64,000 bases of DNA, taken from a virus. Lineage: Duplodnaviria > Heunggongvirae > Uroviricota > Caudoviricetes. Shown here one piece after another: positions 42,411 to 43,300 of the stretch. Made by a program: the position numbers and the translations under genes. Position 1 is the first letter of the stretch; each line of letters opens with the position of its first letter. Below the pieces are notes generated by a model. That model ran no database searches. It was not told the origin of the DNA and was given only the letters and a program-made list of their open reading frames with translations. Where the stretch lies: positions 1 to 64,000 of IMG/VR virus record IMGVR_UViG_3300033146_000394. One strand, 5' to 3'.

Positions 42411-43300
42411 AAAAGCTGAGTGTTGACTTTCAAGAGTATATTTTATACCTATTTCTAAGTACATCACACACAATTCATTTCTGATTGTAATACTCATAGA
42501 GACAAGTTGTGAACTTGCAACTACTACTATCTATTATATAGGTGTTTCTCATATCATGCTCCTTGAGAGATTAAGAGGTTTCACGCTCAAACATTGGATA
42601 CTCAATCCATCCTTATTTAAACTCTTGAGAAGTTCAAATATCTTCCTATTTCAGAAGAATAACTCTATTTTCATAGATAGTGTTACAGAACTTTTTCTTA
42701 TAGATATAATTTAACCAATATTTTTTATAAGTGTTGATTTAATCCAGGATGAGTCTGTAACTTTTTCAATATGCTACCTTTTGAGTAGTTTAACTGAAGT
42801 CACCCCAGTATAGTTTGCGACTATGATTAATAATACTCTTAAACCGAAGTTATACCAAGTATATACTAACTGAATAAAACATATCTAACTTGCGATTAGG
42901 TTTTGTCTTATTCTAAGAATTTCTTGTTGTCGTTTCCAACTCAACCCCCAATACCAACATTTTTTGGGAGTACATATCTATCTTTTCAGACAATCAATGT
43001 ATATATTCTTGTGCTTACATAGATTGCATTGCTGCAACGCAGTAATATTAATTACTACCACTTTATACCATTACTGGTTTATCTTTATATCGATCATAAG
43101 CAACCGAGTTTTTTAATGAACTTTTAATGTATAGTATTAAAAAAATAAAAAGTTTATTTTTTTTTTAACTATTTCACCAATTTTTATTAATCAGTGTTTT
43201 TCATTTGTATAGTATAGTACCTATAATATAAAAAGTTTTAAAAAAACACAATAAAAATTAAATTATTTTAATATATTATTATAACATATTGATATATAAT
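42411..43300. ncRNA. candidate large structured non-coding RNA (ORF-free, GC-elevated ~0.9 kb bounded by terminator hairpins)
   Basis: No ORF over 60 aa on either strand in a genome that is otherwise more than 90% coding. Visibly higher GC with mixed-composition words (GGTTTCACGCTCAAACATTGG, GCATTGCTGCAACGCAG). Identity unknown. Confidence 0.4.

Follow-up and report, generated by a model that had tools for sequence, protein, structure and literature searches.

GOLLD RNA (Rfam RF02032), described by Weinberg et al. in 2009, is among the largest non-coding RNAs of bacteria and phages and forms a protein-free cage larger than the ribosome. GOLLD RNAs are found in phages and prophages, often within tRNA islands, their 5' half is more variable, and their total length often exceeds 800 nt (PMC12286853). 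Cryo-EM of the env-38 GOLLD (Kretsch et al. 2025, PMC12286853) revealed self-assembly into a 14-mer D7 cage in which GC kissing dinucleotides join two half-shells, and in a Lactobacillus prophage GOLLD expression rises in lytic growth (PMC12286853). No purpose of GOLLD shells was reported in the literature searched through mid-2026.

The locus compared with these RNAs here lies within a 64-kb stretch of DNA, hereafter the window. Its genes mark it as phage DNA and include those for a family B DNA polymerase fragment, a helicase, a fused topoisomerase II and an ATPase, along with an HNH endonuclease, a patatin-like phospholipase, a lysozyme and a tail-tube-like protein. In a phage collection, the polymerase at 45375-47129 had its best matches in uncultured phages of 460-735 kb (33-46% amino acid identity), and the window may likewise come from a very large phage. 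These polymerase relatives are LR756501, LR756503, LR756502, LR756504, LR745206 and LR756500, followed by T4-like cyanophages at ~32%. The polymerase ORF (plus strand) covers mainly the C-terminal part of T4-type polymerases, positions 572-852 of 856 in PHROG 262, and the polymerase may be split. The patatin-like phospholipase gene (44427-45404, minus strand; PF01734, E=8e-30), an unusual phage cargo, overlaps the polymerase ORF by 30 nt, 5' end to 5' end.

A 696-nt segment on the minus strand of the window, 43108-42413, is very probably a GOLLD RNA gene, encoding a giant, ornate, phage-encoded non-coding RNA. The RNA is a divergent, compact and AT-rich member of the known family rather than a new RNA class. 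The analysis established its homology to the family, its strand, boundaries and secondary structure, and showed that several elements of the inter-subunit contacts are conserved. Flanked by the terminator of the tail-tube-like gene on one side and the convergent lysozyme gene on the other, the locus is organized as follows:

41343-42158, plus strand: lysozyme gene (Phage_lysozyme, PF00959, E=7e-21)
42413-43108, minus strand: GOLLD RNA core of 696 nt, bounded by a P1-type helix (5') and the terminal hairpin (3') (supported by RF02032, by models R1 and R2, and by the relative L180)
42413-42808, minus strand: conserved 3' domain, aligned to all 416 positions of the Rfam GOLLD model (81.5 bits)
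43355-43912, minus strand: T4 gp19-like or tail-tube-like gene (weak PF06841 and PHROG tail-tube matches)

An earlier note, made from the sequence, had described 42411-43300 as an ORF-free, GC-elevated segment bracketed by two terminator hairpins and lying between a lysozyme gene and a gp19-like gene; it proposed a large structured RNA and suggested a windowed GC profile, a covariance-model scan and a comparison with relatives for compensatory changes as checks. The placement between these two genes agrees with their Pfam and tail-tube matches, and the ORF-free stretch proved real: in the ORF list of the 64-kb window, 42159-43354 (1196 nt) holds no ORF of 60 or more amino acids on either strand. 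The gap at 62512-63999 is longer, but it is an ORF running off the window end, which leaves 42159-43354 as the only true long ORF-free stretch. The GC profile ranked 42413-43108 first among all 696-nt windows, at 31.0% GC versus 22.5% for the whole window and 14.5-16% for the immediate flanks. The raised GC is confined to that segment and does not extend over the whole of 42411-43300, as 43109-43300 is a very AT-rich spacer. Because coding peaks reach 30.9%, the contrast is with the flanks and not with genes. Both bounding hairpins are also real (z of -7/-9 and -5.4), although the one at 43301-43336 belongs to the gp19-like gene. From the lysozyme stop to the shared terminator hairpin runs a spacer of ~210 nt (42159-42370; 16-20% GC), in which no ORF above 37 amino acids and no RNA-family match was found.

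ORF-free DNA with gene-like GC content (31%, versus coding peaks of 30-31%) and a 95-codon open run in one frame might be expected of a protein-coding gene that decayed between the lysozyme and tail-tube genes, and a degraded acquired gene was among the options of the earlier note. This reading is extremely improbable: the frames carry 12-24 TAA codons each, and reading TAG or TGA as sense opens no long frame (longest run, 119 codons). In addition, substitutions relative to a metagenomic homologue of the RNA (L180, introduced below) are spread evenly over the codon positions (58/52/53), with no codon periodicity, and are concentrated as compensatory pair changes, and a known RNA family's covariance model aligns over its full length.

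That match came from a permissive Rfam scan (E up to 10) of ~1.25 kb, 42150-43400, in which the single hit was GOLLD RF02032 at 42808-42413 on the minus strand, spanning model positions 1-416 of 416 with 81.5 bits and E=3.1e-21. The composition-bias term in this score is 30.1 bits, and the E-value of 3e-21 already takes it into account. The scan for known large RNAs, GOLLD-type families included, was thus positive and bore out the proposed large structured RNA; the alternative of a novel non-coding RNA gave way to a divergent member of a family known since 2009, and a ribozyme or intron remnant found no counterpart, as no Rfam family except GOLLD matched at E up to 10. None of 50,697 phage genomes matched the region by blastn, and ARAGORN reported neither tRNA nor tmRNA in the 64-kb window.

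The Rfam GOLLD model covers the conserved 3' domain only. Within its alignment, 80 of the 89 ungapped consensus pairs are canonical in the window RNA, many via GC-to-AU exchanges on both sides, and 77 of 131 highly conserved bases are identical to the GOLLD consensus. One hairpin seemingly deleted in the RF02032 alignment is an alignment artefact, and the alignment with L180 shows both small hairpins. The curated gathering cut-off for RF02032, which is an operational annotation threshold and not a biological feature, is 150 bits, and a gathering-threshold Rfam scan of the whole 64-kb window accordingly returned no match. Because independent tests of family membership were positive, the sub-threshold score is taken to reflect limited sensitivity towards a divergent, AT-rich subclass.

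Viral contigs were scanned with junction-sequence patterns common to the window RNA and env-38, and narrower patterns found L180, L084/L159 and L208. Of the many GOLLD loci retrieved with the junction patterns, 54 were confirmed with a 3'-end model (R1), which matches the window RNA at 42413-42552 on the minus strand. L180 (Ga0256913_10057285, 298-990, minus strand, 693 nt) lies on a 2.2-kb metagenome contig with a GC content (23.8%) akin to that of the window, and reaches 99.9 bits (E=7e-27) against RF02032 when scanned alone. It is 76% identical to the window RNA over the full 696 nt, and the two have in common their compact length, a leader motif 13 nt ahead of the core, a GA/UC contact and the 3' loop. 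By segment, identity is 13/13 in the leader motif (43121-43109), 72% in the 5' domain, 81-85% in the 3' domain, 47% with 9 gap columns in the internal linker, and ~59% outside the RNA; conservation thus ends at the RNA ends. The genes flanking L180 are unrelated to those of the window, none of whose ORFs has a protein match there. More distant are L084, L159 and L208, whose 5' domains are larger (total RNA length, 768-791 nt) and whose GOLLDs are followed by tRNA arrays.

Genomic neighborhood was not shared. Relatives of the gp19-like gene in IMG/VR (52-73% amino acid identity) had no GOLLD within 4 kb, and an E-value-based Rfam scan of eight gp19-linked loci found none, indicating no synteny between the RNA and the tail-tube-like gene. 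Gathering-threshold Rfam scans of 20 gp19-linked loci and 13 pattern-matched loci gave no matches, a lysozyme-based search found no related loci, and a 17-mer DNA pattern from the 3' end had 0 matches in viral contigs. When the window ORFs were compared by tblastn with the flanks of all related GOLLD loci, no common genes emerged. Two sets of candidate matches were discarded: nhmmer and blastn hits of the region in gp19-linked loci were only low-complexity noise, and 13 matches of the pattern ATAAGAAAAAGT...CTCAAG in viral contigs were judged by covariance model to be due to chance.

Several further observations were made on the retrieved contigs. Weak second matches to the 3'-end model occur on L159/L182 (9179-9323, minus strand, 17.6 bits) and L208 (8246-8383, plus strand, 15.1 bits), at a distance of a few kb from the principal GOLLD of each contig, and may be further divergent GOLLD copies or chance matches. 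L201 (RFNS01000086.1, 4585 bp), a short contig in a freshwater alphaproteobacterial metagenome-assembled genome from Lake Lanier ('Alphaproteobacteria bacterium LLD_269'), carries a GOLLD of 729 nt with the same 5' motif and was the only match among the genomes of 185,579 species; it is either a prophage fragment or mis-binned phage DNA. On L216, a contig with the GOLLD 5' motif, ARAGORN identified a tRNA with anticodon CTA (6304-6391, plus strand; reported as tRNA-Pyl), a possible amber suppressor that hints at stop-codon recoding in that phage.

The Rfam speed filters also affect how such RNAs are found. AT-rich GOLLDs (the window RNA, L180, L084 and L159) are dropped entirely when ~20 kb or more is searched, even with E up to 0.01, and the same RNAs score 82-100 bits (E of ~1e-21 to 1e-27) when ~1 kb is searched. 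L180, for instance, was lost to the filters in a 19.7-kb scan, yet is readily detected alone; the AT-rich subclass therefore escapes routine annotation, and AT-rich phage genomes probably hold more GOLLDs than are annotated. The window RNA shows that GOLLD reaches into large phages of very high AT content, and, since such copies score far below the Rfam cut-off and vanish under stricter filters, the family is probably under-counted in environmental phages.

The elements of the RNA itself are listed here from 5' to 3':

42809-43108, minus strand: 5' domain of 300 nt with many GNRA- or UUCG-capped hairpins (fold z-scores, compensatory changes)
43007-43108, minus strand: 5' three-way junction (model R2)
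42764-42799, minus strand: first hairpin of the 3' domain, with the A-rich loop CUCAAAAGG (L14), the same in L180, L084 and L159
42703-42743, minus strand: variable AU-rich linker (47% identity to L180), the counterpart of the disordered linker inside the cage
42697-42696, minus strand: GA of junction AAGAAAAAGU (J13/15), the partner of L20 in cryo-EM contact B7
42625-42629, minus strand: L20 loop CUCAA, in which UC (42628-42627) is complementary to the J13/15 GA

A 5' domain is present upstream of the 3' domain, and the total of 696 nt falls within the ~700-850 nt range of GOLLD. Relative to shuffled sequences, the 5' domain folds with a z-score of -3.1 in the minus-strand orientation and -1.95 in the plus-strand orientation. 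Its 5' junction consists, in order, of a closing helix (UGCUUAU/GUAAGCA), the hairpin CCA-GUAA-UGG, the segment AUAAAGUG and two further hairpins. A covariance model of these first 102 nt (R2), built from the window RNA and L180 only, detected the junction in 25 other GOLLD loci, in every case on the strand of the 3' end and 690-840 nt upstream of it, giving total lengths of 693-837 nt. R2 also matches all 20 loci fetched with a 5'-motif pattern, a result that is expected and adds little, as the pattern was designed from three sequences that include both R2 sources. In the R2 alignment 95.4% of cells are paired, versus 72% for shuffles and 28-46% for slid partners, and compensatory changes occur in 17 of 24 pairs, in an alignment fitted to the model and hence favoring pairing. 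Alignment of the 5' domains of distant GOLLDs, env-38 included, with MAFFT failed, and covariance-model-based alignment was used instead.

Comparison with relatives for compensatory changes supported the helices. The RNAalifold consensus of the window RNA and L180 contains 170 pairs, 23 of them with compensatory changes in the same two-sequence alignment, and ~14 of these 23 lie within the 5' domain. When the Rfam structure is mapped onto the alignment with L180, L180 keeps 73 of the 80 pairs formed by the window RNA, 6 of them via compensatory changes, and the other 7 are non-canonical. A sequence-only MAFFT alignment of 18 full-length RNAs has 67.8% of cells paired in the combined structure versus 37-46% for slid partners, and 95 compensatory pairs versus 31-50. 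ARAGORN found no tRNA in the linker at 42703-42743.

These data also bear on whether an AT-rich spacer might simply score on the A-rich GOLLD model by composition, with no homology behind the match. The score is under the curated threshold, it includes a 30-bit bias correction, and the match vanishes under stricter Rfam filters. However, the E-value of 3e-21 is already bias-corrected, the 5' domain, which is absent from the Rfam model, independently finds other GOLLD loci with correct spacing and strand, pairs covary, as does the tertiary contact B7 (below), and the conservation shared with L180 stops at the RNA ends. A chance match is therefore scarcely credible, and homology to GOLLD is the reading carried forward.

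The GOLLD core is accompanied by signals that likely make it a transcription unit of its own, judging from their sequence:

43128-43156, minus strand: putative promoter, with -35-like TAAACT (43156-43151), a 17-nt spacer and -10-like TATACA (43133-43128)
43109-43121, minus strand: leader motif GTTCATTAAAAAA, directly 5' of the core and 13/13 identical to L180
42362-42407, minus strand: intrinsic terminator of the GOLLD transcript, a 17-bp hairpin (42407-42371) followed by a U-run
43301-43336, minus strand: terminator-like hairpin of the gp19-like gene, outside the RNA, 19 nt past the stop and followed by a U-run

A promoter at 43156-43128 with a start near 43121 is likely; a consensus promoter scanner made no call at 43128-43156, and L180 has CAAACT, 17 nt and TATAAT at the aligned position. 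The leader motif GTTCATTAAAAAA is probably the transcript start. With 17 pairs, the hairpin at 42371-42407 reaches -17.2 kcal/mol (minus-strand z=-7, plus-strand z=-9); each strand also carries a U-run, and in the plus-strand reading the hairpin is a terminator for the lysozyme gene; at this position L180 has a hairpin of unrelated sequence plus a T-run. The hairpin at 43301-43336, with 13 pairs and -14.3 kcal/mol, is bordered by A- and T-runs that make it terminator-like in both directions, and is separated from the RNA by ~190 nt of AT-rich promoter spacer. The RNA would thus be transcribed alone, from the promoter at 43156-43128 through a leader beginning GUUCAUUAAAAAA to an end at the hairpin and U-run of 42407-42362.

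The motif GTTC[TA]TT[GTA]A, placed at 43109-43121 (minus strand) in the window, occurs no more than 110 nt ahead of the 5' domain in 25 of 28 GOLLD loci, where 0.016 occurrences per locus would be expected. It lies 13-109 nt upstream, for example in L180, L084, L159, L064, L070, L075, L090 and L141, at distances that fall into discrete classes (13, 37, ~55, 81 and ~97 nt), apparently set by inserted hairpins, and in many loci it is followed by a second motif, TTATCC(A/G)TT. No description of this element was found in the GOLLD literature searched; it may mark the 5' leader of GOLLD transcripts throughout the family or act as a regulatory site. Two other interpretations were rejected: pairing of GTTCWTTDA with the UCAAAAG loop, as the motif varies and the loop is constant, and, for the window locus, a sigma-70 -35 box, as the start would fall inside the conserved P1 helix.

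The inter-subunit contacts of env-38 (PMC12286853, Supplementary Table 2) were then compared with the window RNA, using an approximate residue mapping, as extraction of the published sequence from PDF text lost ~19 nt. In contact B7, two L20 loop bases pair with two bases of J13/15, and the inter-subunit A-minor contact B6 takes its donor adenosines from L14 (PMC12286853). The B7 kissing contact is complementary in the window RNA, in the same GA/UC state as in env-38. Among 43 distinct GOLLDs B7 is GC/GC in 23, GU/AC in 9 and GA/UC in 5, and is complementary in 38 of the 43, as extracted with a crude regular expression. The L14 loop CUCAAAAGG with the B6 donors is intact, and so is the GNRA loop of CCA-GUAA-UGG, first in the 5' domain, which is assigned by position as the donor of contact B1. 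Hairpins L21a and L21b of the equatorial kisses B8/B9 are both present, with loops GUGAAA and UCAAG that, in a register assigned by eye, contain no palindromic GC, and one L21a stem pair is C-C; the L180 loops, UCGCAA and GCAAG, have the palindromic GC, as do many others. No counterparts of the 5' cap contacts B2-B5 were found in the window RNA. From the sequence, the half-shell-type contact set looks conserved, and by homology to env-38 the folded window RNA would have two domains, a 5' one and a conserved 3' one, connected by a floppy linker. It would then self-assemble, with no protein, into a multimeric hollow shell, with assembly and stoichiometry predicted from env-38; by analogy it may close into a 14-mer.

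The published GOLLDs fetched for comparison lie inside tRNA arrays, and in the 64-kb window ARAGORN found no tRNA adjoining or inside GOLLD. This absence, together with a 5' domain ~120 nt shorter than that of env-38, the C-C stem pair in L21a, the lack of a GC dinucleotide in both equatorial loops and a locus that is not syntenic with relatives, is what a homologous relic that has lost expression or assembly could look like. We nevertheless consider a relic unlikely. Ninety percent of the consensus pairs are intact, and compensatory changes have preserved the compact architecture in L180 despite only 76% identity, which points to purifying selection on structure. A promoter-like region, the leader motif and a terminator are kept in both the window locus and L180, the GOLLD of Acinetobacter phage P577 is equally compact, and tRNAs are also absent from the sequence fetched for 13 of 23 related GOLLD loci. 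A GOLLD RNA gene rather than a relic thus remains our preferred interpretation.

The locus leaves the known mechanism of the family unchanged. It indicates that GOLLD can be a stand-alone transcription unit with a much smaller 5' domain and no tRNA neighbors, and a compact, tRNA-free copy bears on hypotheses of a tRNA-linked function and on which parts are needed for assembly. It is possible, though doubtful, that the window RNA and L180 represent a compact (~695-nt), AT-rich form of GOLLD with a short cap domain, no GC kissing dinucleotides and no link to tRNA islands, maybe with another architecture such as an open half-shell or a different subunit number, and that GTTC[TA]TT[GTA]A is a leader or regulatory site across the family.

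Compared with known systems, the window RNA shares with env-38 and RF02032 the helices of the 3' domain, the UCAAAAG loop of L14 and the GA/UC contact between L20 and J13/15, and with the GOLLD family at large the 5' three-way junction (at least 25 other loci), a variable interdomain linker, a phage-encoded gene and its own terminator. It is shorter (696 versus ~800-835 nt), with a 5' domain ~120 nt smaller than that of env-38 and no extra hairpin between the leader motif and P1. Its 3'-terminal loop is CAACACUCA in place of GUAAUCUCA, and it differs further in its 31% GC, its score of 81.5 bits against the 150-bit cut-off and the lack of any tRNA in 64 kb. ROOL RNA is likewise a large, protein-free, cage-forming phage RNA, unrelated in sequence and fold, and by analogy GOLLD and ROOL probably have the same kind of role. 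Among published GOLLDs, that of Acinetobacter phage P577, at 702 nt, equals the window RNA in compactness.
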